Assembly (NCBI GenBank): GCA_000934665.2
Contig: KZ538387.1
Location: 1-64,000, forward strand
From: Catajapyx aquilonaris
Lineage: Eukaryota
DNA: 64,000 nt
Direction of reading: 5' to 3'
Shown here in pieces: positions 35,025 to 58,319 of this stretch. Positions within the stretch are counted from its first letter, which is position 1. Every line of letters begins with the position of its first letter. A program made the position numbers and the translations under genes. The notes under the pieces were generated by a model, which was given only the letters and a program-made list of their open reading frames with translations, did no database searches and was not told the DNA's origin.

Positions 35025-37077
35025 ATGATAGTGGAAGTGCTTGTGTTCATTGCTGTGCTGTTGCTTCATGCAATCACATGGCAAAAATGGAGTGATACAC
35101 CAGAGGAGTTTCCACCAGGTAAATTGCACTTTATATATTTTAAACTTATTATAAAAGCTGGCACATTTAACTTTCAGGCCCAATGGGTCTACCTATTTTG
35201 GGCTACCTTCCATTTCTGGGTCGTGAGCCCCACAAGACCTTGACAAACCTGTCCAAGAAGTATGGTGACATATTCAGCATTTACTTAGGAACCACAAGGT
35301 CAGTCGTCATCAAATCATAAATTGTAGATATGCACATATTTAATAAAATTTTAGAGCCGTGGTGTTGAACAAGGTTGAGCATATTAGAGAGGCTGGAAAA
35401 CGGGACGACTTTTCCGGACGTCCCGAGTTGGAGTTCAATATCATGTGGGGCGGAGGAGGGACGGACAAAGTGCATGGTACGACACACAATGGACAGGTAC
35501 CGTCAGTTGTCACATGCTTTGTCAATTGGCAGGGATCATATTCAACGAAGGAGATGACTGGTCGGAGCTAAGGCGGTTCACACTGAGACATCTGAGGGAC
35601 CTTGGGTTCGGAAGGAAGACAATGGAAGACCTCATATTGCATGAGGTGCAACAATTGATCGGAAAGCTAGAGTATGTCATCACTATTTAGTATTAGTATT
35701 AGTTAAATTTTTCGCGACTTTTCAGAAGCAATATTAATGAGCCAGTGGCTGTTGAAAAGCTGTTCGAGGTAAGTGTGATCAATGCTCTTTGGACACTGAT
35801 AGCAGGAGATGGTTTCAAGACTGAAGATACGGATTTGATCGAAACCATAGAGAAAATGACTAGGTAAGTGCAATGCCATCTGACATGCACAGTGTGTGTA
35901 ATAGTGTTGGTACAAAATAGGCATGTCACAGAAGCAAACACGACCGGACTGGTGTACTTCTTTCCTCGATTTTCTCGTCTGTTTCCGTTCCTGTCTGGCT
36001 GGACCGAGTTCGAAAATGCAATTGTTAAAGTGCGGAACCTATGCATAGTAAGTATCTTGTGCTGTATAATATTGATTGCACTATAAATTTGTTTAACTTC
36101 AGGATGTGATCAACAAACATCGCAAACGCTCGTTCGATCCTGAACACCCCCATGACTTTATCGAAATATTTATGAAAATGATGCAGGAAACAAATGACAA
36201 AAATTCGTCATTCTACGGCTCGAAAGGAGGTCATGTACCCTGTTTAATGAAGCCTATCACAACAATAATAGTGTTTTGAATTTTTCAGATGTTTCAATTC
36301 TGTCGACAGTAATGGATCTATTTGGTGCTGGAGTTGAAACGACCAGTTCTGGGATGTCATGGTCCGTCATGTTCATAGCTTATTTTCCACATGTCCAGAA
36401 GAAAATTCATGAGGAACTAGACTCTGTTGTAGGTCGACACAGAACTCCGTCGTTGACAGACAAGTATGTTTTATACACTTCCGAAAGTGCGTATAATGTA
36501 ATGTCACAATTTTTCTTTCAGGCTGCCATACTTGGAGGCAACAATTCAGGAAGTCATTCGATTCAGTGGTATGGTTCCATTGTTGCTTCATCACAGGGTG
36601 ACTAGAGACGCAGGTGAGGCATTAATGTGATGTTTCACATATAGGTGTTATATGATGTGGTTTAGAGTTCCAGGGATACCATATCCCTAGTGGTACTTTG
36701 GTGGTACTGAATGCGTACAATGCAGCTCATGACCCTAATCACTGGGACAAACCAGAGGAGTTCATGCCAGAGAGGTTCATCGGACCTGATGGATCACTAA
36801 TAAGCAACGATGCTTTTCTCATATTTGGTGTCGGTATGTCCCACACCGATATTGTTATGATTCAAGAAATATTACCTGGTTTGTTTCCGCAGGTAAAAGA
36901 GTGTGCATTGGTGAGCGTCTGGCCCGAAGTGAGATGTTCCTATTCCTCAGCTGCATCTTGCAAAAGTTCAGCCTGACTTTGCAGTCTGAACCTAAACCAA
37001 CTCTGAAGCCTAGATCACCTGGAACCGTGCTGCATCCTTCTCCATTCCTGCTCAAGCTGGCTCACAGAGACGTGTAA
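35025..37077 (+). CDS. Cytochrome P450, CYP2 clan (copy 5), recent duplicate of copies 4 and 6
   Basis: Same motifs and near-identical introns; WSELRRF; FGVGKRVCIG. Confidence 0.92.
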
Positions 37078-38070
37078 AATAATTAGCAGCAAAATATTTA
37101 CCGACCTCTTATCGCACTCATTGACGTTATGTGACAATACATAGAACCTTGAGTGTACTCCTATACAGAATCTGCTTTTTTACTTTCGTAATGAAAGAAA
37201 ATCTGTCGTATATCAGAGAACCATGTTCACTAATCCCAATAAAAAGTAACAATAAAGTGACTTGTAATCCTATCAGTGAAAATACTACTGCACCCTCTTT
37301 TTGTGCGGCATGTCTTAATATGATCAGGTATGATTGTATGACTTCCAAAACTATATACGTAATGCAAGAGGAATTTTTTGATGCAATAATTATTATCAAG
37401 AATAATGGGGGGGGGGGGAGGACAATACTACAGATATACTGTTACTCAAGACCTTGTTGACCTTCATGGACTGGATGAGTTTGTCCGATTAACCTTATTA
37501 AAACCTTCTCCTCGCTGACTAGTATAAAATTGGTCATGTTAAGTATTAGTTACACTCACGGCATATTCCCAAGATGGGGTTACCTTCAGCTAATAAGACT
37601 TTAAATTATATAATTAAATATGGTAGATCCCATGTATCTCACTGTCGGAGCATAAGTGGTCGATCTATGTAAAAATAATTCTTTTGCATTTAAAAAAATA
37701 AATAATATTGTTCAGAAGCATTTAGAAAAATTGGGTGTTATTTTGGGTAAATATGTCACAATGAGGAAAATAAACGCATAATAATTATAACAATACTTTT
37801 ACCACTGGCATTCATAACTCAAGGATTTCAACTTTTGAAAGATTTACAATCCCATTATTTTCTGGCTAGCAACTTCATGACTATTATTATTGCAGGCTTG
37901 TAAAACCATTCGAGTCGCAGTAATAGTAGTGCACTCTTTCCTAATAATTTATCGGCCACTTCAAGATAACAATATCATTATTTTTATCCAGCCAATCAAC
38001 TTACTGATTGAAATCTCTCTGTACTGGCATAAGTAAAAGCCTAGTTAGTGCATTAGTGCAAGTTGCAATC

Positions 38071-40118
38071 ATGATTGTGGAAGTGCTTGTGTTCATTGTT
38101 GTGCTGTTGCTTACTGCAAGCATATGGCAAAAATGGTCTCATACAACAGAGAAGTTTCCACCAGGTAAATTACACTTTAAATATTTTTAACTTATTATAA
38201 AAACTGTCACATTGAACTTTCAGGTCCATTGGGTCTACCTATTTTGGGCTACCTTCCATTTCTGGGTCGTGAGCCCCACAAAACCTTGACAAACCTGTCC
38301 AAGAAGTATGGTGACATATTCAGCATCTACTTAGGATCCACAAGGTCAGTCTTTATCTGATCATTAATTGCAGATATGAACATATTTAATTAAATTTTAG
38401 AGCCGTGGTGTTGAACAAAGTTGAGCATATTAGAGAGGCTGGAAAACGGGACGACTTTTCCGGACGTCCCGAGTTGGATTTCAATATCATGTGGGGCGGA
38501 GGAGGGACGGACAAAGTGCATGGTACGACACACAATGGACAGGTACCGTCAGTTGTCACATGCTTTGTCAATTGGCAGGGATCATATTCAACGAAGGAGA
38601 TGACTGGTCGGAGCTAAGGCGGTTCACACTGAGACATCTGAGGGACCTTGGGTTCGGAAGGAAAACAATGGAAGACCTCATATTGCATGAGGTGCAACAA
38701 TTGATCGGAAAGCTAGAGTATGTCATCACTATTTAGTTTCTTATAAATTCTTATAAATTTTGCACGATTTTTCAGAAGCAATATTAATGAGCCAGTGGCT
38801 GTTGAAAAGCTGTTCGAGATAAGTGTGATCAATGCTCTTTGGACACTGATAGCAGGAGATGGTTTCAAGACTGAAGATACGGATTTGATCGACACCATAG
38901 AGAAAATGACTAGGTAAGTGCAATGTCATCTGACATGCACAGTGTGTGTAATAAGTGTTGGTACAAAATAGGCATGTCGCAGAAGCAAACACGACCGGAC
39001 TGGTGTACTTCTTTCCTCGATTTTCTCGTCTGTTTCCGTTCATCTCTGGCTGGAACGAGTTCGAAAATGCAATTGTTAAAGTGCGGAACCTGTGCTTAGT
39101 AAGTAGCTTGTGCTGTATAATAATGATGGCTCTATAAATTTGTTTAACTTCAGGATGTGATCAACAAACATCGCAAACGCTCGTTCGATCCTGAACACCC
39201 CGATGACTTTATCGAAATATTTATGAAAATGATGCAGGAAACAAATGACAAGAATTCGTCATTCTACGGCTCGAAAGGAGGTCATGTACCCTGTTTAATG
39301 AAGCCTATCACAACAATAATAGTGTTTTGAATTTTCAGATGTTTCAATTCTGTCGACAGTAATGGATCTATTTGGTGCTGGAGTTGAAACGACCAGTTCT
39401 GGGATGTCATGGTCCGTCATGTTCATAGCTTATTTTCCACATGTCCAGAAGAAAATTCATGAGGAACTAGACTCTGTTGTAGGTCGACACAGAACTCCGT
39501 CGTTGACAGACAAGTATGTTTTATACACTGAAAGTGTGTATAATGTAATGTTGCAATATTCTTTTCAGGCTGCCATACTTGGAAGCAACAATTCAGGAAG
39601 TTATTCGATTCAGTGGTATGGTTCCATTGTTGCTTCATCACAAGGTGACTAGAGACGCAGGTGAGGCATTAATGTGATGTTTCACATATAGGTGTTATAT
39701 GATATGGTTTAGAGTTCCAGGGATACCATATCCCTAATGGTACTTTGGTGGTACTGAATGCGTACAATGCAGCTCATGACCCTAATCACTGGGACAAACC
39801 AGAGGAGTTCATGCCAGAGAGGTTCATCGGACCTGATGGATCACTAATAAGCAACGATGCTTTTCTCATATTTGGTGTCGGTATGTCCCACACCGATATT
39901 GTTATGATTCAAGAAATATTACCTGGTTTGTTTCCGCAGGTAAACGAGTCTGCATTGGTGAGCGTCTGGCCCGAAGTGAGATGTTCCTATTCCTCAGCTG
40001 CATCTTGCAAAAGTTCAGCCTGACTTTGCAGTCTGAACCTAAGCCTACTCTGAAGCCTCGATCACCTGGAATCGTGCTTCATCCTTCTCCATTCCTGCTC
40101 AAGCTGGCTCACAGATAA
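38071..40118 (+). CDS. Cytochrome P450, CYP2 clan (copy 6)
   Basis: Near-identical to copy 5; ends KLAHR*. Confidence 0.92.
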
Positions 40119-40395: not shown

Positions 40396-41107
40396 TTATC
40401 CTGTCACCATCTGAGCCAGTTCAGGCATCGATTTAGCCATTTCCCTCAGAGACATGACAAATGCAGGAACGCACTTGATGGCTTTCAGAAACACCAAGCA
40501 ATTGACTCTTGCTATATCACGAACACTTCCAGCTGAAATTGTTACAACATGACCCAAATGTTCAGTTTCGGAGACACACTTAAGACACACTTAATACTAA
40601 TACACTCACCATTATCAAGAGCGCAGGTTATGAAATCTGACAGACCAGAAACAGCCTCTCCAATTTGACATACACCTCTGGCACCTAAAAGAATCTTGTC
40701 CAATTGCTCATTTGGGACAGGCATTCCAGCCTATAAAGGGGGAGTCAGTATGGTAACACTATTGGTCAAATTTGGCCTACTCACCCCTGCGAAGATTCCG
40801 TTAAAGAAAGACTTGAAGAAACACTGAAAATAATCATGGAGTGTAATGACACCATATTTATTATCAGTATTAAGTGCATACCTGAGGACTAAATGGCATG
40901 TTAGCCTTCATGGCCATAAATCCAGCTTTTCCCACATTCAAAGGGTCTACTAATTTACACTGTAATCATTAATGACACATGAATTACAATTTGCATATTT
41001 GATTGTAATTATCACTAGTTTCCTACCACTGAATTCTCGTCCCCCGCTTGTTGACTTTCATGGAATAAAGCTGCCAGAACACCAAAGTATATAACCGAAA
41101 TCTTCAT
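40396..41107 (-). CDS. Uncharacterised secreted 6-Cys protein, paralog A (151 aa); exons 41107-41027, 40959-40882, 40823-40785, 40730-40610, 40532-40396
   Basis: MKISVIYFGVLAALFHESQQAGDENSV|CKLVDPLNVGKAGFMAMKANMPFSPQ|CFFKSFFNGIFAG|AGMPVPNEQLDKILLGARGVCQIGEAVSGLSDFITCALDN|AGSVRDIARVNCLVFLKAIKCVPAFVMSLREMAKSMPELAQMVTG*; all introns GT-AG. Confidence 0.85.
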
Positions 41108-42286
41108 GGTTGAAGAGAACTAAGAGTAGTCTGGTACCGATGACTTTCTTTTATAAACTCACTTTTATTAAAGGTGTTGCGTACCTTGCTGAAGATATTA
41201 TATTTACAGCTGATATTATTTTCTGCATTGTTCTACGCTCCGGACATGAATAAAATTTACGAGTGTTTTTATAGATCAGGTTGGAGAATAGGTGGCTGAA
41301 ATTTTTATTGCAACCTATGTTACCATTCAATATGACGTATGGTGACCAATGATAATATTCTTTTCTTCATACAAACAATTCAAGAAAACTTGTAGAGAGA
41401 GAGATGGATTGGCATGTAAGTCACTTTGCTTAAAACCTGTAGTAAATTTCTGACGTAATCATTAGGAAAATATCATAGAGCCCTATTTTATTGTCCATAA
41501 AGAAGCTGTGATTTTATATCTAGTTTATCAACTGTAAAGTTATACAGACCTTGTCATAAAACGATGGTTCTTGCCACTGTAGTTCTTGCCCTGCAGTAAG
41601 AATGATCAATTGTTTTACTTGACATCTGGATTTCATTTTTAATATAAAGGAGGAGTCAGGCATGTCTAGATGTATACAAATTATACAGAAACATTTTCTG
41701 TGTTTGCATCAATATCGACGTGTGAAATCAAATTAATATGAAAGATGAATTCACTAAGAGTCATTGTCTCAGAAGTTACTAAAATTTGGAATATAAAATT
41801 TTACTGTCACATATTTGTTCATTTTTAAATGACTGCTAGGGTATTATTACCTGCTGTAGAGTAATTGAAATATAGTTACCACATTTCTCTGCAATTCCTT
41901 CTGCTTCCATGAAATCCCAGAGTCCATATCGTTGCCAGTAAAGTAGTTCATAGAAGCTCATCAAGTTTTCAAGTAACATGATGATCGTACGGTATGTCAG
42001 AAAATTATCAACGTGTCAACGTGTCAAACTAAGAAAAAGAAATCTGAAATGAAGTAGAGGCCTACTTTAGAATACCGATGAAATAATTAGGGACGATTTC
42101 TATTCTTATTATTGAAAAAAAATATTCATGAAAATGTCTAATGAACAGAGTTCAACATCAGGGAACGTTCAAGTGAGTTCAGGCAGGAATTATTTTTTAT
42201 TTCATCCAGACATCAATATGCACACAATTTGTTCAAAACATTCTTGTCGATCCTGATGAGTTGCAATCTTCTCCAGGTGATAATAA

Positions 42287-43149
42287 TCAGCCCGTAAGGA
42301 GACTCGCAGTCTCAGGAAGAGCCTTGGCAAATTCCTTCAATGCCCTAAGGAATGACGGAACACATTTCACTGCCTTCCAAAATACCAGGCAGCTCGCTTT
42401 CTTAAGATCAACATCACCAGCTGTAAACAATGCCCATATGATCAGTTATATATATAAAAATTAAAGCAACAATTAAGGTGCACCTACATGTGTTCAGAGC
42501 ACATCCCAGGAATTCTCCAAAGCCTGAGATAGCTTCTTGAACTTCGCAGACACCTCTAAGTCCGTTAATCAAGCTCGAAACCTTTTTAACTGGCCCTTCG
42601 AACTCAAGCGCTGACTGTAATCCAGTAATGCACATTAATTAGGATGGTTTATGTTGGCATTTAAAAATTCACACCAGCTAGATTCACTTACTGATTCCAT
42701 TAATCCAATAAGAAATGTCCGGAAGAAACACTGCAAAATTAATATTAATACTATATTAATTTTTATAGCTAAATTAAGCAAAAAATCAAAATCTTGTTGT
42801 AACAATGCAGAGCCTACCTACATTTTTAATTTCAATTTTAGCAATACATGTTTAATGTGAAATGCGGATAAATACGTGAGGTTTCCATGGCATTGTTGCC
42901 TTCATGGTAGAAAGACCAAGCTTCACGATGGCTAGAGGCGATAGCAGTTTGCACTGAAATGAGAATAATAATAATAATTCAAATTGTCATCAACTGACAA
43001 CTATAGAAGATTGATAAATTAGTAGTTAATATTTCGCTAAGCATTTCTGTGTGTGTTCTTACCACGGAATTTTCCCCAACACCATGACTAGTGCGAATTT
43101 GTCCTAAAATGAACACCACACCCAGGGAGAGAAATAATGGTGTCTTCAT
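42287..43149 (-). CDS. 6-Cys family paralog B (154 aa); exons 43149-43063, 42953-42876, 42730-42692, 42614-42488, 42420-42287
   Basis: MKTPLFLSLGVVFILGQIRTSHGVGENSV|CKLLSPLAIVKLGLSTMKATMPWKPH|CFFRTFLIGLMES|SALEFEGPVKKVSSLINGLRGVCEVQEAISGFGEFLGCALNT|SGDVDLKKASCLVFWKAVKCVPSFLRALKEFAKALPETASLLTG*. Confidence 0.87.
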
Positions 43150-43309
43150 GGCTACAGCGCAGAATAGATACTGGGCTGTAAAACTTGCACCGACCTGTAT
43201 TTATCAACTCGCCATTTGCGCATTTGCATTGCAATACACCTCCTTTCTTAGTAGTTTTACACTCGAACGTTTGGTATCCTAATAGAAAATGTATTCACAC
43301 ATGTCAAAA

Positions 43310-43540
43310 GTTATTATTTTGGGAGAATCGGCGCTCCATTAGGGGGGGGGGGGTGGAATACCACCATTGGATGGGGCCAAGGACAAGGAAGCGGCTGTGG
43401 CCTATTATACGGAAACGATCCCGGAATTGTCCTGGGGGAAAACCACGGTCAGGATCGACGTCCCCGTGACTCGAACCCAAGACCTCCCGATTAGCAGTCG
43501 GGCTCCTTAACCACCACACCAACTTACGTCGTACTTCGGT
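43310..43540 (-). mobile_element. SINE S2 copy
   Basis: ccgaag...gactgctaatcgggaggtcttgggttcgagtc head; body homologous to 6333-6611. Confidence 0.75.
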
Positions 43541-44030
43541 CACACATGTCAATAGTTGAATAGTGAATTTGTGCGGATTTAATATTTGTGCAGAAATATT
43601 TTTATACTTTTAATCGGAAATTGATAATTTAAGTGGAAGTTGAGCCCTACTTTAACTACTAAAATATGAAGAAAGATAAATCAAATCTACTTCCACTGAA
43701 ATTAATTAAAACAATTATTATTTCCTTACACTCATGGACGTGATTTCCAATTTATTGTTTCTCCATTTTAATCGCAATTTCTAATAAAAATTATAGAATT
43801 TTCCTCCCAATAATTTTCATATCAACCCAGATCATCCTGTGAAGTTGCTTTACTTAATCGTGACTATGTGGTATATTATATTGAAGGCTTCAAAAGTTGA
43901 TCGTTAAAATAATAATGATTATATGGAGAGTAAAAAAATGCAGAATATAAGAAAAATGGTCAGGTTTCTCTTCCACTTAAAAAATGACCTCAAGATGTCT
44001 CGTCTCGAGGAAAAAATCTTAACCTTTGCC

Positions 44031-44172
44031 CAAGGGGTTAGCAACTCCCTGGAACCGGTGTATACACTGGCTGAGGAAGCGGGTGGAACCGGGTGGAACC
44101 GGATGGAACCGGATGGAACCTCCCGGTTCCAGGATCTGGTGTACACTTTTTTGGGGAGTTGCTAACCCCTTG
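44031..44172. mobile_element. Small MITE-like element with internal 10-bp ggaaccgg(a/g)t repeats
   Basis: caaggggttagcaactccc ... gggagttgctaaccccttg. Confidence 0.6.
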
Positions 44173-44503
44173 CCTTTGGCCTTTATTTTTACATTGTTCA
44201 CAACCCCCTCTGTAATCTCTGGCTATAGTCGATGTCAGTTGGGATGATTGCCCATAGACGGTCAAGGTGTCGGAATGTCTATTGTAATCTCACATAAATA
44301 TATTGGCTCAAATATAATTTCATTTTTAAACACCTCTGAATTTTGTCAAATGAGTAAAGGAAACATGTTACATAATAATGGCGATTTGGCATTTATTATT
44401 TTGCCAAATAATCTCTTGAGCAGACTCCAATTACTGATATCATTCAGAACCGATTTTATTTCGGAAAGGAATAAGTACACATGATTCGAAGCATTCTTGC
44501 AGA

Positions 44504-45916
44504 TCAATCATCTTTTCTAAGGATATCTTGAGTAATTCCAATGATAGCGTCAGGAAGAGTCCGGAGAAATTCCTTAACAGCTCTAACAAAACTTGGGACG
44601 CACTTCGCAGCCTTCCAAAATACCAGGCAGCTCGCACCCTTAAGGTCAACTGTACTAGCTGCAACATAAATCATAAGATCAATTGTGATAATAAGGTAAC
44701 AATATTAAGGTGTACGTACCTGAGTCCAGGGCGCAGTCCAGGAATTCATTAAACCCTGAAATCGCCTCTTCCGCTTCGCATATATCTCTAAGTGCGTTTA
44801 TGAAGTCTCCCATTTTCATAAAGCTTTGGAGCTCCGTCGTTGACTGCAATCAAGTATCAAGTTAATTATGGACGGGCTTTATGTTCATGTGTAAACCTTT
44901 CACACCAGTTAGCTTCACTTACTGATGTAAATAGTCCATCGAAGAATAACCGGAAGAAACACTGAAAGATAACCTCCATATTAATATCATATTTGCTGTA
45001 GGATTATAAAGTATGGCCACTTTCTCAGAAAGGGAAGTGACGTGTGATGACGCCTTATGAAACGTCGTCATCACACGTCACGTCCATACTTTACTGGGCA
45101 GGAGAAGATTGTCGTCTACGCATAGACGACAATCCCAGTGAGCTTCAAGTATCCCATCCGATCGTGCCTCTGATTGGTGCTTTATGAAACGTCATCATAC
45201 GTCATTTCTGGAAGTGGTCATACTTTATACAAGTAAGGTTAAAACTAGGGTATTGAGCATTTTCCGTCTGTCATTTTTTGAGGAGTAAATGTGTGAAGTT
45301 TGAGTATATGTGACGCAAGACCTACACTTTAAAACAATATTGTACCAATACATGCTTAATATGAAATCCGGATAAGTACGTGAGGTTTCCAGGGCAGTGT
45401 TGTCTTCACGGTATCCATAGCAAGCTTCGCAATGAACATGGGCGACATTACTTTGCACTGAAACGAAAAGAATATAATATAATGCAAGCTTTATTATGTA
45501 CTTTTGAACCAAAATTGGTCCAAAATTGCAGAAAATAAATACGAGCCTACATACTATCTGTCAATGTGCAATGGTCTATAAACCCAGCTACAGTTACGAG
45601 GAAAATACGTCATGAGAACAAGTGCCATTATATTGGATACTAGCATTAAAATATTTAATTATATATAATATAATGATAATGGATACCTGTTCAGGCTCTG
45701 ACTTGAGAAATTGCGATAAGAAATGAATAAGCACACCAGGGTCGTAGTGCAATGTAACATTTACTGATAAATTACAGCACAATTAACGAAACACTGTTAT
45801 TCATTAGGATTTTGCAACTAATATGACCTTACCGTTGAAAGTTCCCTTCCCATACATGTGTGAATTTGCCCTAACGTTATGAGCACACCCAGGGAGAGAA
45901 TTAACTGTGTCTTCAT
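44504..45916 (-). CDS. 6-Cys family paralog C; exons 45916-45833, 45457-45380, 44961-44923, 44843-44720, 44658-44504
   Basis: MKTQLILSLGVLITLGQIHTCMGRELST|CKVMSPMFIAKLAMDTVKTTLPWKPH|CFFRLFFDGLFTS|STTELQSFMKMGDFINALRDICEAEEAISGFNEFLDCALDS|ASTVDLKGASCLVFWKAAKCVPSFVRAVKEFLRTLPDAIIGITQDILRKDD*. Confidence 0.87.
45005..45229. mobile_element. MITE in intron 2 of paralog C
   Basis: tataaagtatggccactt ... aagtggtcatactttata, with internal hairpins. Confidence 0.65.
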
Positions 45917-46124
45917 AGTTGCAGTGCTAGACTGATACTGGACTGTAGATACTGCACCGACAAGTACTTATAAACTCGCAAAGCCTGTGTATGCAAATGG
46001 TTACCTATACCTAGAGTAATACACTTACAACGTGATGATACTACGCTGTAAGGTGTAATTCTACAGTAATATACTGTATAAAGAAAAACTCTACTACTTT
46101 AAGAGGAAGAAATAATTTATTTAA

Positions 46125-46243
46125 CCTCCTGAGACTCCTGGTACAGTATACTGTACCTTTGTTTTTTCCAGCACCTTCTGACTAACTCAAACGCGTAAAA
46201 AACACACAAATGTACAGTATACTGTACCAGGAGTCTCAGGAGG
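46125..46243. mobile_element. piggyBac-type MITE
   Basis: TTAA| perfect 32-bp TIR cctcctgagactcctggtacagtatactgtac ... |TTAA. Confidence 0.85.
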
Positions 46244-46905
46244 TTAACAAACTACCTACCACTAATAATTATTGTTCTCAAAACCGCGCACCTTAATAAT
46301 AATCATCATTTGAGTACTCTTAGCAATGTATGGACAAAATTGTGACATTGCATCAAGGAATTTTCTCGTGTGAACACTCATGCCAGGAGTTTCATCTAAT
46401 TGGTAATGTTTAGTGAGGCTTCATGAATAAGCATGTTTTGAAAGTTTGGTAAATAACAATTAATGTAACAATTGAAATTAAAGTTGGTGCCACTTACTCT
46501 CTAATATTGATATTTGGGGATGTTCATGGCCTTGTTTCTTAGTAAGTTTCATTAGTATGACCTCCCTTGCACAGAGAGAATGTTACTCGCTACGCTTCGA
46601 CCCCCCCTGCGCGCCTTCGGCCCTTGGCATCCCCGTCCGTTGGCACTACATTCGGGATTGGTGCGAGATCTCCTCCGTTAGGGCCTTTTTATGATTCAGA
46701 ACCAGATTTTTATTAGGAAAAACCGTGGACTCAAGAAATCCAAATCCAAATTGACTTCTTTCAACATGGGCCTCCCAAAACTGAAAACCACAGTCAAGAA
46801 ATAATATATTCCAATCAATTGTGACGATTTTATTTCTTCCGGAAATTATTATGTACAGAGTCAGTAGAAGTTCAGGCGTTGCAATCTTCTGTTGGGGATT
46901 GGTAA

Positions 46906-47679
46906 TCAGCCGAATAGGCCTGAAGCAGTCTGAGGAATAGACTTGGCAAAGGATTTTATCGCTCTAATAAATTGGGGCAAGCACTTCACAGCCTTCAAAA
47001 ATACAAGGCATCTCGCACTCTTGAAATCAACATCACCAGCTGTAAACGACAACCCCATCACATTATCAGAAATATTCATTGTAACAATTGCGATGTACAT
47101 ACATGTTTGTAATACACATGAGAGGAATTCTCCAAAACCAGCAACCGATTCTTGCAATTCACAGATAGTTCTAAGTGCGTATATCAAGCCCGAAAGTGAA
47201 TTCCCTTGGAAGTCATGCGTTCCCTGCAATCCAGAAAGACAGATTAATTATGGATATCGTCTTAGTTTCTTATTACAATATTTTGTTCGATACTTGCAAA
47301 TACCATGTTCAAACTTTCGGTTCACTTACTGCTTCATATATTCCAACGAAAAATCTCCGGAAGAAACACTGGAAATATTAACTTGTGTTAATATCCTGTA
47401 ACGTAACATTAATTAGATATGCACAACAGGATAAATACGTGGGGACTCCATGGGAAAGATGCCTTCATGGCACTCATACCAATCTTCATGATGGCAACTG
47501 GTGTTAAAATTTTGCACTGAAATTAGTAATTTTAATTTATTGAAAGCCTAATGCTACTGCTAGTATAGTAGTCTAATAATAAAAATCCTTACCGCTGAAT
47601 TTTCCCCAGCACCCTGACAAGTGTGAATCTTCCCTAACGATATGATAACACCCAGAGAAAGAATGAACGGCATCTTCAT
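46906..47679 (-). CDS. 6-Cys family paralog D; exons 47679-47593, 47516-47439, 47368-47330, 47223-47103, 47039-46906
   Basis: MKMPFILSLGVIISLGKIHTCQGAGENSA|CKILTPVAIMKIGMSAMKASFPWSPH|CFFRRFFVGIYEA|GTHDFQGNSLSGLIYALRTICELQESVAGFGEFLSCVLQT|SGDVDFKSARCLVFLKAVKCLPQFIRAIKSFAKSIPQTASGLFG*. Confidence 0.87.
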
Positions 47680-48137
47680 GGCTGCAGTGTCAGATACATA
47701 CTGAAGTAAATCGCTCATACAATGACCTATATTTATAATCTCGCAAGTCTTGAACAGTTGTATCGAGAAATTCTCAGAAGGTTTTACACCATACTGTTTA
47801 GTACCCTTGTTATTGCAATGCTTGTTGTTGTAAACATGTTGGTGTGTAATTCAATAATTGTAGAACTATGGAATAATTATCTTGTCTTCAAAGAGTGTGA
47901 TAGGTCGATACAAAATGTACCGCACAGTGCTGCAGGCATTTCTAGCAACAAAAGGACTGCCACATGCGCATTATTTAATGCTCATGACCTAGTCTTTGTC
48001 ATATTTGGCTCAAGTGATAGACAGCCCGCATTTTATATGCAGCGCAAAGCCATAAATTTTTATAGCATTCTACAAGATATACAGTACAGTATAAAACTAT
48101 TCACTGAGTTGTATTGTGACGTAAATACTTAATATTG

Positions 48138-48286
48138 TCGAGTTTATAAGAGTATAAGTCGGTGATGTATCTACGTCAGTAGGCTATCTATCCGACATTG
48201 GAAACACGAAGACACCATATGGTATCTCTTGATTTTAGGCCTCTCATACTATCCATAGTCATCGTTCTGAGGAAAATTCGGCGTAA
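48138..48286 (+). pseudogene. Relic promoter and exon 1 of a plus-strand 6-Cys paralog (ATG>ACG at 48206)
   Basis: cgagtttataag...tggaaacACGAAGACACCATAT...gaggaaaattcggcgtaa mirrors paralog G exon 1 (tggaaccATGAAGACACCATAT...ggggaagattcggcg|gtaa). Confidence 0.7.
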
Positions 48287-48304
48287 TTTTAAATATATAT
48301 TGAA

Positions 48305-48565
48305 CTAGCAGGATACCCGGCGTAGCTCGGCAACTGAACAGGGATTGTTTATACCAAAATGCGGATTATTAGAACAGGGGGACAATGTCCCAAAGTCCTT
48401 TCCGTCTCCTGTGGCCAAGGATGACGTCGGAGGTCAATTCCAATGTCCTTAAAACCTTCCCAGTAAAAAACTACCCCTAGTGATACCCCTGGGGCATATG
48501 TGGAGGCCTCCGTATGGATCTGATGAGGTCATAACAGGACAGACAGACAGATATACGTCGAGAAC
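48305..48565 (-). mobile_element. Non-autonomous Helitron family H2 (5'-truncated)
   Basis: Minus strand ends ccgagctacgccgggtatcctgCTAG|T with (TGTC)n; near-identical to 58538-58803. Confidence 0.75.
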
Positions 48566-48894
48566 CGACATACCGTAGTAACAGGGAAGCAGTGGAACTG
48601 TTAGGATTTTGGTCTAACCAATCGATGAGTTTGTTTCAATGTTTCTGGCCTTTCTTGTAGAGTAATCTTCATTTGTAAATATATCCAGGGATAATTAGTA
48701 AAATTGTAGAAATGCAGCTGACAAATGCAGGAACAATATTTAAGTAAGTTTGCTAAATTGCAGCTTGGGGTACTCCCGACAGGTGGCGTTGGTCACATTC
48801 TGAAAAATTCTGAAAGAGTTCTTCCAGCCAAAATACATAGTGGACTACTCAGATGAAGATTTTATTTCTTCAGCAACATATACACATTATTTTA

Positions 48895-49229
48895 GCACTT
48901 GTATCGTCCTAATTTGGGCATCTGGCACGGTACCTTTATTTGCTTAAGATGTACAAGCTTTTACAGGTGGTCCTTTTCCGTATCGCCCGGGTACCACGAG
49001 CGAAGGTGGGATGAATAGGAGGGGATGTGCAATGTGCAATGCAATGTCTGAACTTGGTCATTTTGTGAACTCCCCCCGGGTGGCTTAGTCTGTCGGAGAT
49101 TGCCACCCGAAATGAAGCCAGAGATGGCCCAACTCTGCACGGATAAAGGTGGGAACCCCGGGTGGGGATTGAACCCGGGACCTTAATATCCGTGGGCACG
49201 CGCGTTACCGCGGCGCCACTTCATCTCCC
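48895..49229 (-). mobile_element. SINE S1 variant inserted in the last coding exon of paralog E
   Basis: Head gggagatgaagtggcgccgcggtaacg...ggttcaatcc; tail resembles the 13240 copy. Confidence 0.82.
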
Positions 49230-50188
49230 TAACACACTAGTTAAAGCATCAGGAAAAGTCACAAGAAATTCCTTAGTCGCTTTGAGTAAATGCGGCACAC
49301 ACTTCGCAGCTCTCCAAAACACAAAGCATCCAGACTTCTCAATTTCAACATGACCAGCTGTAACAAGAACCTAGGTTTTAAAACCAGTTTGACAATTGAC
49401 TCGAAATGTACCTACCTGTGTGTAGGGTGCACTCCACGAATTCTTTAAAACCCGTAAGAGATTCCTGCGCTTCGCAGAGGCTTCCAAGTGCGTCAAAGAA
49501 GCCCCCGACAGTAGCTACTTTGAATTTGTACGATGACTGCAAACCAATAATTCATGTTAGTTAGTAAGCTCAATTAGGCTTCTAATTGAACATTACATCA
49601 GATAGTTCAATACTTGTAAATACCAACATTCAAACGTGAGCTTCACTTACTGCGTCATGTAACCCAAGAAGAAATTCCCGGATGAAGCACTGGAAAATTA
49701 ACTTACATCAATAACAAAATAATGGAGTTAACTTAAACATACTGTATTCATTAAAAATTTTAATTATTTTCTAATATTACAACTTGACATAAATTTACAG
49801 TAGTTTTGGCAACACCAATTGCAATACTTTAAACCAATATCAAAAAATACGAAAGACGCGTATTATGTTAAATATCAGATAAATACGTGAGCTCTAAAGG
49901 GCAGGCTGGCCTTCAATGCTCGAGTAGCAGTATGCACGAGGGCTATGGGCGATAAAAATTTGCACTGAAATGAGGAATATGAGAGTATAATATAACAACA
50001 ACATCAACATTAGAGGAAAAAAAAACATTGGTCTTCTAATGACTTCTGGTGACATTTTGTCAATAACAGGTCATAACCTACTGACATTATCATATCCTTA
50101 CCACGGAATGTTCTCCGTCGCCCTGACAAGTGCGAAATTCCCCTAAAGTTATGAGCACTCCTAGGGAGAGAAATAACGGTGACTTCAT
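49221..50188 (-). CDS. 6-Cys family paralog E; exons 50188-50102, 49964-49887, 49689-49651, 49536-49416, 49357-49221
   Basis: MKSPLFLSLGVLITLGEFRTCQGDGEHSV|CKFLSPIALVHTATRALKASLPFRAH|CFIREFLLGLHDA|SSYKFKVATVGGFFDALGSLCEAQESLTGFKEFVECTLHT|AGHVEIEKSGCFVFWRAAKCVPHLLKATKEFLVTFPDALTSVLGR* (last codons SINE-derived). Confidence 0.83.
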
Positions 50189-50515
50189 GGTTTCAAAGCT
50201 GGGCTGATACTGAGCCGCAGATACTGAGACGACATATACTTATAAACTCGCTTTTCCTTTTCCATTTGAATATAGAAACGCACCTAAGTAAATGTCAACA
50301 TTGTCAAGTTATAAGCCTACAGATGTGGTCACCGATGCACAAAATGCGCTTCAAAAAATGTTTTAAAATTTTACAAAAATCATAACTTCCATATGCATTG
50401 TTCGAATATTCATGACGTAGTCTTTGTCATATTTTTCTCAAGAGATATTTTATGCAGCAAAAAGCAGGAAATTTTACTGCCATAACAGACGCGCTGCAAT
50501 ATAAAACTGTTCATA

Positions 50516-50621
50516 TGAACTTTATAGGTACAAAAGGGAAGCGCTACATTGGGGGACCCAACATGGTCGCCGGTGGCCATGTTGTGTAGCGCTTGGAACC
50601 CTTTTGTACCTATAAAGTTCA
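50516..50621. mobile_element. Palindromic mini-element; an S2 SINE head follows at ~50660-50735 (minus)
   Basis: tgaactttataggtacaaaaggg...cccttttgtacctataaagttca. Confidence 0.6.
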
Positions 50622-51197
50622 GGGTAGTCCGGTGGGGTCGCCACATATCAGTGCAGTGAAAGGCCCCGGGATTTGATCCCAGGACCTCCCGATTAGCAGT
50701 CTGACACCATATCCCCTACTCCAAACTGCTTCGGTCTTAGCCCTACTATAATACACTGTAAGTTCTGTAATATTTTATAACGTCTGTGATATACGGGGTG
50801 TTCCCTGTAATTCGGGACACACTTCTAGGGGTAATAAAGGGGACCAAGACAAGCATTTTTGACAAAGGAACCCGTGTCCGGAAACTCCATCTAGAGGGGG
50901 TTCATATACAAGGAACGGGTGCGCTCAGACGCGTCAGGCGAGAGGCGCTAGGCGAGCGGACTGTTTTCTTGATAGATGGCGCCCCCACAGTGTTGCAGGT
51001 ATTTCTGGCAACATAAAGACTGCCACATGCGTATTATTTAATGTTCATGACCTAGTCTTTGTCATATGTCGCTCAAGTGATAGACAGCCCGCATTTAATA
51101 TGCAGCGCCAAGCTATTAATTGTTTTACTAGCATACCATAAGATTTACAGTATAAAACTATTCACTGAGTTGTATTGTGATGCATATACTTGAGATT

Positions 51198-51294
51198 GGC
51201 GAGTTTATACGTAGAAGTCGGTAATGTATCTACGTCAGTAGGCTATCTATCCGACATTGGAAACACGAAGACACCATATATGGTCTCTCTTGGG
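51198..51294 (+). pseudogene. Second relic promoter and exon 1 of a plus-strand 6-Cys paralog (ACG at 51265)
   Basis: ggcgagtttata...tggaaacACGAAGACACCATATATGGTCTCTCTTGGG; near-identical to the 48138 relic. Confidence 0.65.
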
Positions 51295-51559
51295 CAATTA
51301 GGATTTCGGTCTAACCAGCCGATTAGTCGTTTGTTTCAATGCTGTTGACAAATTCAGGAACAATATTTAATTAAGTTGTGGGGTACTCCCGACAGGTGGC
51401 GTTGGTTACATTCTGAAAAATTCTGAAAGAGTTCTTCCAGCCAAAATACATTGTGGACTGCTCAGATGAAGAGTTTATTATTTTCCTTTCCTTATCAACA
51501 TGTAGTCTACACTTTATTGGAGTACATGTAGAACATCATCATCTCTTTCTTGTGTTTTC

Positions 51560-52431
51560 TCATTCGCCCCTCACAATATCGCCCGCAATACCAGTCACAG
51601 CTTCAGGAAGAGTTAAAAGAAATTCCTTAACCGCAGTGACGAAATGAGGCACACACTTCGTAGCTCTCCAAAACGCGAAGCATCCAACAGCATCAATATC
51701 AATATTAGAAGCTGTAACATGAACCTAGGCTTTAAAACCAGTTTGACAATTGACGCAAAATGTACCTACATGTGGACATGACGCAATTCGTGAATTCTTT
51801 AAAACCAGTAAGAGATTCTTCTGCTTCGCAGATGTCTCTAATTGCGTTTAAGAAGGCCCCGACAGTTTGTTCAGCTATTTTAACTTCTTGCGATGCCTGA
51901 AAACCATCAATAATGCATGTTAGTTAGTAAGCTCAATTAGGCTTCGGATGGAACATTCCATGCAAATAACCAACATTCAAACGTGAGCTTCACTTACTGC
52001 TTTATATAACCCAGTAAGTACTTCCTGGACGAAACACTGGAAAGCATAAATTTACAGTAGTTTTAGCAACAATATTCGAACGATGTGTATTAGGTTAAAA
52101 TATCTGATAAATACGTGAGCTTTCCAGGGCAGGGTGGCCTTCATTGCCTTGGCAGCAATTTGCACGATGGCTGCGGGCGATAACATTTTGCACTGAAATA
52201 AAGAATATGAATAATTCATTGAGAGTATAATAAAAACATAATCAACAACATTAGAGGGGGGGAAAACATTGATCTTCTAATGACTTCTGGTGACATTTGA
52301 CAATAACAGGTCATAACCTACTGACATTATATCCTTACCACGGAATTTTCCCCCTCGACATCGCCCTGACAAGTGCGAATTTCCCCTAAAGTTATGAGCA
52401 CTCCTAGGGAGAGAAATAACTGTGACTTCAT
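51560..52431 (-). CDS. 6-Cys family paralog F; exons 52431-52339, 52192-52115, 52036-51998, 51896-51770, 51711-51560
   Basis: MKSQLFLSLGVLITLGEIRTCQGDVEGENSV|CKMLSPAAIVQIAAKAMKATLPWKAH|CFVQEVLTGLYKA|ASQEVKIAEQTVGAFLNAIRDICEAEESLTGFKEFTNCVMST|SSNIDIDAVGCFAFWRATKCVPHFVTAVKEFLLTLPEAVTGIAGDIVRGE*. Confidence 0.87.
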
Positions 52432-52852
52432 GGTTTCAAAGCTGGGCTGATACTGAGCTGCAGATACTGAAACGACATACTCATAAACTCGCTTTTCCTA
52501 TACCATTTCCATACATAAACACGCCTAAATAAATTATCAACATGATAGGATTATAAGCCTACAAGTAAAAGTGTATAAAATTCGCTGAAAAATGTTTTAA
52601 AATAATTCTACAAAAATTATATTCATTGTTTTAATATTCATGCCCTACTCTTTGTCATATTTTTCTCAAGTGATAGAAACCCCGCATTATATGGAGCAAA
52701 AAAAGCAATAAATTTTACTAGCATACTACAAGCGCTACAATATAAAACTGTTCAGTGAAGGTGCATTGTGATGCAAATGCTTAAGATTGGCGAGTTTATA
52801 AGTATAGGTCGATCTAGTATCACAACTTCAGTATCTAGCCCACACTGGAACC
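52432..52852. promoter_or_regulatory. Divergent (bidirectional) promoter region between paralogs F and G
   Basis: 421 bp between the ATGs; GCGAGTTTAT(A/G)AG followed by TCAGT in both orientations (plus 52790-52832; minus ~52452-52492). Confidence 0.6.
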
Positions 52853-54344
52853 ATGAAGACACCATATATTCTGTCTCTGGGTGTGTTCTTTATTTTAGGG
52901 CAAATTCGTACTAGTCAGGGTGCTGGGGAAGATTCGGCGGTAAGGACACAACATTGATTAGTAAAATAAGTAGTGTCTTAATTAATGATAATTTGTTATG
53001 AAATGCATACTACAGCTAGTGAAAATTCAATAGTTAAATGTCACTGCATTGATACCTTTAAATTCCTCAGATATTATTTTACGCAACACTAAGTTATCAC
53101 TGATTACATTAGTACTCATTTTTATTGATCAAAATTATTAATATTGTAATGCTGTTGTCATTATCCAAAGTCATTTATTCTGCGTCTTGTGACATATTTG
53201 CTACGTGATTCTCTATAAAATATGAAGTATTGTGCTGCTTATTACGATGATTAGTCTATTTACTTATCTCAATGAATTACAATTCCTAATTTCAGTGCAA
53301 AGTTTTATCGCCCGTTGCCATAGTGAAGATTGGTTTACGTACCCTTAAGCAGACTATGCCCTGGAAACCACACGTATTTATCCTTATTTCTTATTAATAA
53401 TGCAGTATTTTCAGTACAGTCATTAGTGCTTAAAAATTAGACAGATGGTGCTCTAGTAAAGGTCAGGGAGCATATACTACATAAGAGGCGCAAACTTCTG
53501 TCGGCGCCTTTGATGTTCGTGTCTCTCTGTTTGGGGCCGTCGCCAAGGCTGGAGGCCATTTTGAAGTGTGGGGAACGCCAACGAGGTATAAATAGGGTAC
53601 AGGCAAAAATATGGTCCGCCATCTTTGATGGTTTTGGCGGCCATGGCAAGAACACGCGCGAATCAAAGATGGCGGGCCCTATTTTTGCCTGTACCCTATT
53701 TATACCTCGTTGGCGTTCCCCACACTTCAAAATGGCCGCCAGCCTTGGCAACGCCCCCAAACAGAGAGTTATGTAGTATTATGCTCCCTGGTACAGTACT
53801 GACAGGTGATGACATCAACTCACGGCTCTAAGTCAATTCATAATAAATCAAATTTAATTTAACTGAAAACAATGTTACAGCAACTAAGTCATTAATGTGA
53901 CGATAATCTTGCAGTGTTTCTTCCGGACGTTCCTCATATCAGTGTTTGAAACTGTAAGTGAATGAATATAATCTGTAATATAAGTGTAGCGCAACATGCT
54001 GAGTACATTACTGAATTTCAGTCAACATATGAGTTCAAAATGTCGGAAAAGCTTGGGAGCTTAATAAAAGGACTTAGAGGTATGTGCGAAGTTAATGAAG
54101 CGGTCTCGGGCTTTGGAGAATTCCTGCAATGCGCCATGAACACAGGTAGGTACACCCAAAATTGTTGTTTGGACATCTCAGATGATGATATTGTACGGTT
54201 AATGTTACAGCTGGAGAGAAGTCTCTTGCCAAGTCGAGCTGCTTGGTATTTTGGAGGGCAGTGAAGTGTGTGCCCCAATTCATTAAAGCGCTTAAGGAAT
54301 TTGCTAAGGCTCTTCCTGAGACTGTTAGTCTCATGAGGGGCTGA
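52853..54344 (+). CDS. 6-Cys family paralog G; exons 52853-52939, 53296-53373, 53915-53953, 54022-54145, 54211-54344
   Basis: MKTPYILSLGVFFILGQIRTSQGAGEDSA|CKVLSPVAIVKIGLRTLKQTMPWKPH|CFFRTFLISVFET|STYEFKMSEKLGSLIKGLRGMCEVNEAVSGFGEFLQCAMNT|AGEKSLAKSSCLVFWRAVKCVPQFIKALKEFAKALPETVSLMRG*. Confidence 0.87.
53464..53790. mobile_element. Largely palindromic MITE (hAT-like CAGGG ends) in intron 2 of paralog G
   Basis: cagggagcatatactacataa ... ttatgtagtattatgctccctg; ~110-bp internal arms (53525-53628 vs 53662-53768). Confidence 0.8.
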
Positions 54345-55649: not shown

Positions 55650-58319
55650 ATGATCCGAGAGTTATTAATATGTTTTATAGCGATATTAGTTGCATTTGAA
55701 TATTACCGGCGTAAAATGCGAAGTGGGAAGTATCCTCCAGGTAAGTAGCATCATACTTTAAAATACATTGTGTTACATGCTACAATGTTGTATAGGACCA
55801 ATGGGAATTCCTATCCTTGGCTACTTGCCATTTCTGGGTTCCAACACTTTTCTTGGTATGGGAAAACTCACCAAACAATATGGAGACATCTACAGCATGA
55901 GTTTTGGACCTTTGAGGTAAGATATTTATTTTCATAAGCATAACTTGAAGTTTACAAATATATTTTGCAGATGTGTGGTATTAAACAGCATAAGTCTCAT
56001 TCGTGAAGCAAGCAAACGAACCGAATTCAGTGGTCGGCCTTCATTTCATATGGCCAAAATGTGGTCAAGTAGAGGCAGCAATGACCACGCTTATGGTAAA
56101 AAAAATTGTGACATGGTAGAGTATTATCTATATAAATAAAGCCGTTTGTGAGTCTGTCTGTCTTTCTGTCTGTCTGTCCGCCTGCCAACCGTCATTTGCC
56201 TGCCATCTGTGCTCCACCCCCAGGCCGGGAGAGGATGGAGGTTTTGGGGGTTGACTACAGATGGCAGGCAAATGACGGTTGCCGTTATACTGGCGGGACA
56301 GGTTGAAGGTGTTGGAGTAGCAGGACCACAGATGGCATTGGTGGACGGACACACAGAAAGACAGACAGTTGACGGGGCTACTGGCAGGTGTTTTCCCTTC
56401 ATTCATTTCTTCCCGGGCAACGCCGGGTGCCGCAGCTAGTACCGGTAATCAATAAAGAAATTAATAAATTGCAGGTCTTTTGTTTAATGAGGGTGAAGAA
56501 TGGAAGGAGCAACGTCGTTTTACCCTTAGGATGCTCAGAGACTATGGATTTGGAAAGAAATCTATGGAAAATCTAATCCAAGATGAGATCCATGAATTAC
56601 TGGATATCCTCAGGTAAATAAGCTTGAATCGTATGAGTATGATTTTTTTTACAAATATTTTATTTATTTATTTTAAAGAACAAAGAAAGAGGGGCAGTTG
56701 GTTTCACCTGAACATCTGTTCGAAATATCTGTGGTGAACTCACTATGGACAATCATATCTGGAGTCAGGTATTCTCCTGATGACCCACGACTGAAGACAT
56801 TGGTGGAAAGGCTTAGCAGGTAATACGAATAAAATACAGGTGTTAACCATCATACTGATCATGGGAAAATCCATATCTGATATTTCTATATAGAAAGTAT
56901 AATATTAAAGGATATTTCAGAGATTTTGTAACAGTCGGAGCACAGGGGATGCCATTTTACTTTCCAACCATTTCAAAATGGTTCCCAAACTTTTCTGGAT
57001 ACAACAAACTAAGCAGAGCCATCGAGGGAATAGCAGAGCTTGTTAAGGTCAGCATTCATATTGCTACACAAAATTCTAGAAATTTTAAATTACTAACAAC
57101 GTTGTTACAGAGCGAAATTTCAAATCACAAGAAGGATTATTCACCTAGCGGCCTTCGAGACTTTATGGACGCATATTTGAAAGAAATAGAAGATACTAAG
57201 AATCCCAATTCGTCGTTTTATCAAGAAACTGGAGGTAAATTAATCTTAGTTCATTGAAATTCAATCATTAATTGCTGTCGATTGTACTCATAGAATTGTC
57301 CTTGATAACCACTCTGATTGACCTATTCGGAGGAGGAACAGAGACAACCACGACTGCCCTGACCTGGGCTTGTCTCTATCTGGCAGCATTCCCAGAAGTG
57401 CAGAAGAAGATCCATAAAGAGATGGACGATGTCCTTGGAAGAAATCATCTACCACAATTAGCAGACAAAGAACGGTACGGTACATCTCACAAATGGTAGC
57501 CTAACATCTATAATATTAAAATCCTTGCGGGAGTTGGCCGAGCCCTCTGATTGGTCCGCCACATATTGTTACCGCCACCTCCCCATTTGCCCGCGTTCTA
57601 CTCATGCGCAATGGGGTGTAAACAACTCCTCTGTTGGGTTACCGGGGAAACTGTCCATTCCCCGGCGATATGGTGCGCCGAATAGGTACCCCAGGCCGTA
57701 GGCCTAGAAAAGAGCGAGCGTTTTCCTAGTAAAATAATTATTTTCTCTCTTTACAAGCCTTCCTTACTTCGAAGCCTACACGCAGGAGACATTTCGACTG
57801 TCAGGACTTGCACCAGTGTTAGTGTTCCACAAGACAATAGAAGACACAGGTAAATTCTTGTGAAATGTCAACATCTGACATTGTTAACAAGTTTTGCAGA
57901 GTTTCAGGGGTATGAGATTCCAAAAGACACGACGGTCATTATGAACGCCTGGTATGTCATGCATGATCCGAAGAACTGGGAACGACCTAATGAGTTTTAT
58001 CCGGAGCATTTTCTGGCCCCTGATGGATCCTTCAGGAACCGCGACGCTTTTATCTTATTCGGAACAGGTCAGCTACTGCTAGAAACAGTGTTAACAATAT
58101 ATTGTTACATTGCAATCATTTATTGTAGGAAAGAGGGTGTGCCCTGCTGAGACTCTGGCTCGAACTAGTTTCTTCCTATTTCTGACCAGCATTTTGCAAG
58201 AATTCACATTGGAATTTCCTCCTGGAGAAAAACCCTCTTTGGATTTTGCTAGTCCTGGATTTACGTTGCGACCACATCACTACAATGTGAAGTTTTGCAA
58301 GAGATCCAGCTCCTCATAG
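55650..58319 (+). CDS. Cytochrome P450, CYP2 clan (copy 7), 11 exons
   Basis: YPPGPMGIP; WKEQRRF; DLFGGGTETTT; ETFR; FYPEHF; FGTGKRVCPAE. Confidence 0.9.
56127..56439 (+). mobile_element. Non-autonomous Helitron H1 in intron 3 of P450 copy 7
   Basis: A|TC...(GTCT)n...hairpin...CTAG|T with no TSD. Confidence 0.85.
57507..57729 (+). mobile_element. Non-autonomous Helitron family H3 in a P450 intron
   Basis: A|TCTATAATATTAAA...gcgagcgttttcCTAG|T. Confidence 0.7.

Follow-up and report, generated by a model that had tools for sequence, protein, structure and literature searches.

The window analysed here comprises the first 64,000 nucleotides of contig KZ538387.1 of Catajapyx aquilonaris (assembly GCA_000934665.2, forward strand) and carries, between positions 40396 and 54344, a tandem array of seven small genes, named A to G, which encode proteins with a predicted signal peptide and six invariant cysteines. 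The array ends with the stop codon of A on one side and with that of G on the other. Genes A to F are encoded on the minus strand and G on the plus strand, in a head-to-head arrangement with F. Genes of the cytochrome P450 family (P450) are found on both sides of the array.

Gene Models of the Array

The seven copies were recognised by their second and third exons. A scan of both strands of the 64-kb window for AG followed by TGY, 75 further nucleotides and GT, without a stop codon, returned 11 matches, seven of which are mutually similar and represent exon 2 of the seven copies. Six of these lie on the minus strand (40.9, 42.9, 45.4, 47.5, 49.9, and 52.1 kb), and the seventh, at 53.3 kb, is on the plus strand. 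With the stretch set to 39 nt, 20 matches were obtained, of which the seven adjoining the exon-2 sequences are exon 3. Every copy has one ATG-initiated, signal-peptide-like exon upstream, ending at a phase-0 donor, and downstream an exon 4 that ends in phase 1 and is followed by a terminal exon 5. Splice-site modelling resulted in seven five-exon genes with coding sequences of 456–489 nt, all of them in frame (Table 1). Exons 1 to 5 measure 81–93, 78, 39, 121–127, and 134–155 nt, respectively, exons 2 and 3 being constant in length and each beginning with a Cys codon. All 28 introns are bounded by GT...AG with a pyrimidine-rich acceptor, have a length of 54–541 nt, and follow the phases 0, 0, 0, and 1. 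Phase-1 introns are described as over-represented at signal-peptide cleavage sites (PMC1626468); the intron behind exon 1 of the array genes is in phase 0. Such a set of seven intact paralogs, with this exon and phase structure, had been proposed in an earlier sequence-only reading of the locus, and the modelling recovered it at the same coordinates. By every available sequence criterion the seven genes are real, and they are predicted to be expressed.

No eighth copy was detected by tblastn in the window; one candidate at 818–624, matched by F alone and containing an internal stop codon, was taken as a chance match. Intron 4 of gene D is only 63 nt long and open in frame, resulting in an exon 4-intron 4-exon 5 read-through (46909–47223, minus strand). 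With 105 aa, it is the sole contiguous two-exon translation in the window, and it was used as a query in the searches described below. Introns 1 and 2 of gene C (375 and 418 nt) and intron 2 of gene G (541 nt) are enlarged, in part because inverted repeats resembling miniature inverted-repeat transposable elements (MITEs) lie inside introns of these two genes. The one in intron 2 of G (53523–53768) has arms of 107 nt, and a short inverted repeat is present in intron 2 of C (45033–45085). A further MITE-like inverted repeat with 47-nt arms was noticed in the C-D spacer (46121–46247).

Table 1. Position, strand and basis of the genes and other features located in the 64-kb window; exons are given in order of transcription.
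Feature	Position	Strand	Basis and remarks
Gene A, 151 aa, most divergent	40396..41107	-	exons 41107-41027, 40959-40882, 40823-40785, 40730-40610, 40532-40396
Gene B, 154 aa	42287..43149	-	exons 43149-43063, 42953-42876, 42730-42692, 42614-42488, 42420-42287
Gene C, 159 aa	44504..45916	-	exons 45916-45833, 45457-45380, 44961-44923, 44843-44720, 44658-44504
Gene D, 152 aa	46906..47679	-	exons 47679-47593, 47516-47439, 47368-47330, 47223-47103, 47039-46906
Gene E, 153 aa	49221..50188	-	exons 50188-50102, 49964-49887, 49689-49651, 49536-49416, 49357-49221
Gene F, 162 aa	51560..52431	-	exons 52431-52339, 52192-52115, 52036-51998, 51896-51770, 51711-51560
Gene G, 153 aa	52853..54344	+	exons 52853-52939, 53296-53373, 53915-53953, 54022-54145, 54211-54344
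Promoter motif, B	43197-43212		
Promoter motif, C	45964-45979		
Promoter motif, D	47729-47744		
Promoter motif, E	50236-50251		exact
Promoter motif, F	52477-52492		
Promoter motif, G	52790-52805		exact
Relic 1, non-coding G-like remnant, E-F spacer	51064-51295; promoter, 5'UTR and exon-1 part about 51171-51295	+	promoter motif 51199-51214, 2 mismatches
Relic 2, non-coding G-like remnant, D-E spacer	48001-48290; promoter, 5'UTR and exon-1 part about 48110-48290	+	promoter motif 48138-48153, 3 mismatches
Six P450 genes and one fragment, upstream flank	19268..40118	+	Pfam p450 on exons; four recurring marker exons
Upstream P450 marker-exon sets	19.2-21.0k, 21.9-23.5k, 25.7-27.5k, 30.5-32.1k, 35.5-37.1k, 38.5-40.1k; fragment 29.2k	+	
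At least three further P450 genes, downstream flank	56468..63518	+	Pfam p450; marker exons
Downstream P450 marker-exon sets	56.4-58.3k, 60.1-61.8k, 63.3k to window end	+	
Intronless ionotropic-receptor-like ORF (Lig_chan), 646 aa	1301-3238	+	Pfam; upstream of P450 cluster
Intronless 7tm_7 gustatory-receptor-like ORF, 402 aa	7408-8613	+	Pfam; upstream of P450 cluster
U5 spliceosomal RNA match, may be partial	12151-12222	-	44.7 bits vs gathering score 40; model positions 6-75 of 117

Cysteine Frame and Protein Properties

The seven proteins share the cysteine spacing C1-X25-C2-X32/33/34-C3-X14-C4-X14-C5-X8-C6, with 15 instead of 14 residues between C4 and C5 in A. The signal-peptide-like exon 1 and the six invariant cysteines noted by the sequence-only reading were confirmed, but its spacing of 32 or 34 residues between C2 and C3 has to be corrected, as 33 residues were found in C and G. 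The mature proteins have exactly six cysteines in every copy, and a seventh one is present in the signal peptide of C, D, E, and F, at about position -3 of the predicted cleavage site. Within the mature region, 21 of the 127 ungapped alignment columns are invariant, six of them being the cysteines.

In the peptide encoded by exon 1, position 2 is a lysine, the hydrophobic core comprises 10 residues (mean Kyte-Doolittle value 2.5–2.9), and the residues in front of the likely cleavage site are small; a signal peptide was predicted heuristically in all seven copies. The mature part revealed no transmembrane stretch (maximum 19-residue Kyte-Doolittle mean 0.99–1.65). With total lengths of 151–162 aa, the proteins have mature parts of about 128–138 aa and 13.8–15.3 kDa, the pI of which ranges from 5.2 to 9.3. 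Their grand average of hydropathicity (GRAVY) of +0.20 to +0.43 is unusually high for soluble proteins.

Hydrophobic moments favour a period of 100 degrees, as is typical of helices, and an AlphaFold model of the D read-through, which represents the C-terminal two thirds of D and was calculated without an alignment, displays four helices at a mean predicted local distance difference test score (pLDDT) of 45.4. At this low confidence, the model does no more than hint at a tendency to form helices, and it is as a weakly indicated propensity that the helical nature put forward earlier is retained. In the alignments, MAFFT twice put the exon-4 peptides of the copies onto the C-terminal helix region of exon 5 and not onto exon 4 of D, which may be a tool artefact or reflect a faint internal similarity of two amphipathic helices.

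Promoters, Poly(A) Signals and Relics

Upstream of the six genes B to G, a common motif, GCGAGTTTATAAGTAT, was identified about 55 nt before the ATG, with the initiator-like TCAGTATC about 30 nt downstream of it. Since this spacing fits a TATA box followed by an initiator and leaves a 5' untranslated region (5'UTR) of about 20 nt, the two elements were assigned accordingly. Gene A has a weaker TATA-like TTTATAAAAG upstream. Allowing up to three mismatches, the promoter motif was matched nine times in the window, compared to 0.6 expected matches, and none of 100 shuffles reached nine. Six of the matches precede B to G, two lie in the relics described below, and one, at the donor of intron 4 of A, is due to chance. 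In six of the seven genes, a poly(A) signal is located 41–86 nt past the stop codon (in A, an AATAAA at 64 nt), and in E it is located at 280 nt.

In B, C, G, and both relics, the TATA motif is preceded, at a distance of about 20–40 nt, by an element of the ATGCAAAT / TTGTGATGCAA type (e.g., 43213–43245 and 52760–52789). It may resemble octamer or C/EBP-type sites and could be a putative pointer to tissue-specific control.

Two dead remnants of a G-like copy were found on the plus strand, in the E-F and D-E spacers. Both align to the promoter and exon 1 of G and have kept the promoter, the 5'UTR and part of exon 1, with ACG in place of the start ATG and a broken frame. The relics share 205 of 224 aligned nt (91.5% identity) and were co-duplicated with E and F, which means that this gene pair arose by duplication of a unit of about 3 kb already carrying a dead copy.

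Divergence and Selection

Amino-acid identity among the paralogs ranges from 30 to 71%, with the cysteines fixed. In the paralog tree, A forms a long branch, followed by B and G, then D, and then C with the sister pair E/F. The most similar pair is B/G (71%), whose members are located at opposite ends of the array and on opposite strands. The ratio of nonsynonymous to synonymous divergence (dN/dS), determined for the mature region by the method of Nei and Gojobori, was 0.19–0.67 in 18 of the 21 pairs; two pairs were saturated and their ratio undefined, and E/F reached 1.42. When signal and mature parts of E/F were separated, the mature part showed a dS of 0.241 and a dN of 0.325, i.e., a ratio of 1.35, and the signal part a dS of 0.059 and a dN of 0.038.

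The introns of E and F offer a yardstick for these values. Among the aligned intron sites, 34 of 365 (9.3%) are different, compared to 85 of 374 (22.7%) in exons 2 to 5 (Fisher p = 7e-7). Identity amounts to 94% in exon 1 and to 88% over the 100 nt upstream. Because the introns differ by 9.3% and the co-duplicated relics are 91.5% identical, the neutral divergence of the E/F unit is about 9%, and the mature-coding exons have diverged about 2.4 times faster, with all cysteines kept. Decay would give equal divergence of exons and introns, and gene conversion cannot alternate between exon and intron; thus, the best reading of the sequences is that diversifying selection, and not decay, has acted on the mature protein. 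In the sequence-only reading, a dN/dS near 1 among paralogs had been regarded as a sign of non-functional genes. Such a value is formally found for E/F, but exons that outpace introns are the opposite of decay. The same comparison in the other pairs is uninformative, as the aligner gives an identity of 0.57–0.85 even on shuffled sequence.

Homology Searches

Single exons, exon profiles, or the D read-through served as queries in all homology searches, i.e., the queries were at fragment level and thus weak. Neither the single-exon pieces (14 of exons 4/5 and 10 of exons 1/2) nor the D read-through gave a credible Pfam match, the best one, Ku_PK_bind (E = 0.013), remaining below its cutoff. PF01395, the family of the classic insect odorant-binding proteins (OBPs), was reported neither for the 24 single-exon pieces at E up to 10 nor for the D read-through at E up to 1. 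The Pfam matches included no saposin, ML-domain, toxin, or antimicrobial family, and the matches in the Protein Data Bank (PDB) no saposin, toxin, or antimicrobial family. In PDB searches with the D read-through and with exon-4 and exon-5 profiles, OBP and OBP-like chains, the mite OBP entries included, were absent among the matches at E up to 10. All matches were at chance level, namely NusA (E ~0.1), a carboxypeptidase (E = 0.9), and designed coiled coils; the last amphipathic segment matched designed amphipathic coiled coils exclusively.

Exon 5 of B found no homolog in a large protein library, and a protein atlas gave no usable match. The large library was also blank for two controls, the 646-aa ionotropic-receptor ORF of the window and a P450 I-helix exon, and its silence therefore says nothing on arthropod relatives and carries no weight for novelty. 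A phmmer search of 1.84 billion representatives with the D read-through gave a lone match, P0001 (E = 2e-4), which is spurious, since the alignment covers the intron-derived residues 42–71 and the match belongs to a repeat in an FHA/PIN protein. A metagenome scan with the exon-5 profile pointed to one locus (L001) on a bacterial contig of 67% GC, where 16 residues were matched, and this was considered a chance match. In a non-exhaustive search of the literature, no family with the cysteine spacing of the array surfaced.

Comparison with Known Carrier Families

Classic insect OBPs (PBP_GOBP) resemble the array proteins in having a signal peptide, six conserved cysteines, and a mature part of about 14 kDa (about 120–140 aa in OBPs), as well as in helical propensity and in their arrangement as tandem gene arrays. 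OBPs fold into six helices with an internal cavity and pair their cysteines as C1-C3, C2-C5, and C4-C6. The distance between C1 and C2 (X25) is within the published range of OBPs, and C5-X8-C6 is matched exactly in all seven copies (PMC2808328). The order-level OBP patterns listed in Table 2 of PMC2808328 continue from C2 as C2-X3-C3-X21-46-C4-X7-28-C5, and X3 is invariant among them. Chemosensory proteins (CSPs, OS-D) are likewise small secreted helical carriers of arthropods, but they have four cysteines in the pattern C1-X6-8-C2-X18-19-C3-X2-C4 (same table), which occurs in no array copy. Measured against these published patterns, the departure from both classic frames that the sequence-only reading had noted was upheld. 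NPC2 proteins, with their ML domain, are beta-sandwiches; the low-confidence partial model of D is all-helical. Saposin-like proteins contain a six-cysteine helical lipid-binding domain.

Outside insects, the likeness is one of description. Mite OBP-like proteins are reported to have six cysteines in a non-insect pattern with a different disulfide pairing (PMC8222343), and the OBP-like proteins of chelicerates and myriapods, such as Varroa VdesOBP1, for which a crystal structure is available, are small, secreted, and helical. OBP-like proteins have undergone large tandem expansions in some lineages, with 21 genes described in one centipede (PMC5952958), and are said to lie at the edge of Pfam detection (PMC5381604). 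The candidate carrier proteins (CCPs) of spiders and scorpions form a lineage-restricted, fast-evolving family whose members are small and secreted, conserve their cysteine pattern, lack a usable structural template, and were proposed to be carriers (PMC5381604, PMC5952958); the comparison with the array relies on this published description, and CCPs are reported there only from spiders and a scorpion.

Flanking P450 Genes and Other Features

At least nine sets of recurring P450 marker exons flank the array, six upstream, together with one fragment, and at least three downstream, all on the plus strand. Their heme-region motifs look CYP2-like, as we presume. Three of the upstream genes (30492–32077, 35508–37068, and 38554–40115) are very recent duplicates: the marker exons of the last two are 97–100% identical to each other and 85–97% identical to those of the third, 30492–32077. 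An assembly gap of 10 N is located at 32424.

Further upstream, the window contains the two intronless receptor-like ORFs of Table 1 and a C2H2 zinc-finger ORF. By themselves, these receptor families point to an arthropod or a comparable protostome. A tRNA-derived element resembling a short interspersed nuclear element (SINE) is present in related copies at 43340–43545, 6336–6502, and 50664–50724; an Rfam tRNA match at 6340–6411 falls within the second of these, and motifs resembling translations of the element recur in other ORFs of the window.

Functional Interpretation

The reading that we tentatively favour, while considering it possible rather than established, is that the array encodes secreted, disulfide-braced, hydrophobic helical binding proteins working like carriers of the OBP type. 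After removal of the signal peptide, the six invariant cysteines of these fast-diversifying proteins of about 14 kDa would form three disulfides, bracing a compact, mostly alpha-helical, and rather hydrophobic domain. Between the cysteines, the variable residues would form the lining of a surface or pocket that binds small hydrophobic molecules or lipids, and each paralog would have a different specificity, as in arthropod soluble carriers of the OBP-like kind. The array itself would have grown by local segmental duplication, one inversion, and the birth and death of copies.

Several results weigh against a carrier function. The fragment queries gave no homolog, domain, or structural match for a carrier fold, and the sole structure model, that of D, is of low confidence and spans only four of the six cysteines. 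The C2-X3-C3 of classic OBPs is absent, C2 and C3 being separated by 32–34 residues in all seven copies. The positive GRAVY and a dN/dS of 0.34–1.35 exceed what is typical of OBPs, a mean omega of 0.153 having been given for Drosophila (PMC2258175), a figure that refers to orthologs and not to paralogs as in the array. The excess of dN over dS in E/F is not significant by itself (bootstrap share 0.869). Finally, a conserved signal peptide and conserved introns combined with a fast mature part fit toxins or antimicrobial peptides as much as carriers.

This last point leads to the idea that the proteins are secreted effectors or defence proteins, be they salivary, venom-like, antimicrobial, or membrane-active in a saposin-like manner, whose diversification is driven by an arms race. 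We regard it as somewhat unlikely, although the E/F pair, with 22.7% divergence in the mature-coding exons compared to 9.3% in the introns and 6% in the signal-peptide exon, and a mature dN/dS of 1.35, is in line with an arms race. The genes of Conus toxins (PMC3862624) and of the mussel MgCRP-I peptides (PMC4558851) are described with the same layout, a conserved signal region and conserved introns around a variable, cysteine-framed mature part, and together with the genes of the rodent pheromone proteins ABP, ESP, and MUP (PMC3477143) they share with the array this layout and the tandem birth-and-death evolution. These families are unrelated to the array and most are much shorter; the likeness concerns the mode of evolution only. 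The hydrophobic, amphipathic character of the mature proteins, a pI of up to 9.3, and the strong TATA-plus-initiator promoters of B to G, that of A having a weaker TATA, would also suit effectors. Yet about 130 mature residues are many for a typical cysteine-rich toxin or antimicrobial peptide, neither a propeptide nor a dibasic processing site is present, two of the copies have an acidic pI (5.2 and 5.4), the older pairs are moderately constrained (dN/dS 0.34–0.66), and neither Pfam nor the PDB returned a toxin or antimicrobial match to the fragment queries. That the array genes are instead true but highly diverged members of the insect OBP or arthropod OBP-like superfamily, having lost the classic C3 and gained a new cysteine between C3 and C5, appears unlikely to us. 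Signal peptide, size, number of cysteines, C1-X25-C2, the exact C5-X8-C6, and the tandem arrangement all agree with it, and the non-insect pattern of the mite proteins (PMC8222343), along with the position of OBP-like proteins at the limit of Pfam detection (PMC5381604), would leave room for such a member; on the other hand, the array lacks a spacing that is invariant in all order-level patterns published, and neither PF01395 nor OBP chains of the PDB were matched by the fragment queries at the thresholds given above.

A functional coupling to the P450 cluster, in which the proteins would carry substrates or products of the enzymes as part of a co-regulated detoxification or semiochemical module, is improbable in our view. 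Its basis is the position of the array between at least six upstream and at least three downstream P450 genes, to which the hydrophobicity of the mature proteins may be added. Against this, six of the seven array genes are on the strand opposite to all P450 genes, the array promoter motif occurs near none of them (9 of 9 matches within 40.5–52.8 kb), P450s are intracellular membrane enzymes whereas the array proteins are predicted to be secreted, and unrelated tandem families often interleave by chance. The suggestion that the copies are decaying or non-functional duplicates, or not genes at all, is largely refuted and hardly credible any longer. The E/F ratio of about 1.35 does not differ significantly from 1, and the two relics show that copies do die in the array; nevertheless, seven ORFs, the splice sites of 28 introns, six cysteines, and the promoters are all intact, the E/F exons diverge 2.4 times faster than the introns where decay would have made them equal, and decay, where it occurred, left its local signature of a lost ATG and a broken frame in the relics.

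Returning to the carrier reading, its more far-reaching form is rather doubtful. It would see in the array an undescribed arthropod family under diversifying selection, possibly with a new disulfide-braced helical fold, which is secreted and binds hydrophobic ligands or lipids, an independent solution, analogous to that of the OBPs, for the transport or neutralisation of hydrophobic molecules, perhaps recruited next to a CYP2-like detoxification cluster.

Arthropods deal with odours, pheromones, lipids, toxins, and microbes by means of soluble carriers and effectors, and these are poorly catalogued outside insects. Genes with exons as short as those of the array are easily overlooked by automated annotation. 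The fixed cysteine frame, the unusual spacing, and the signs of diversifying selection make the array a good candidate for a lineage-specific family with a role in binding or defence. Should it prove to have no relatives, a new scaffold would join the few carrier folds known from arthropods; if it belongs to the OBP-like proteins, it would show how far the OBP cysteine frame can drift.

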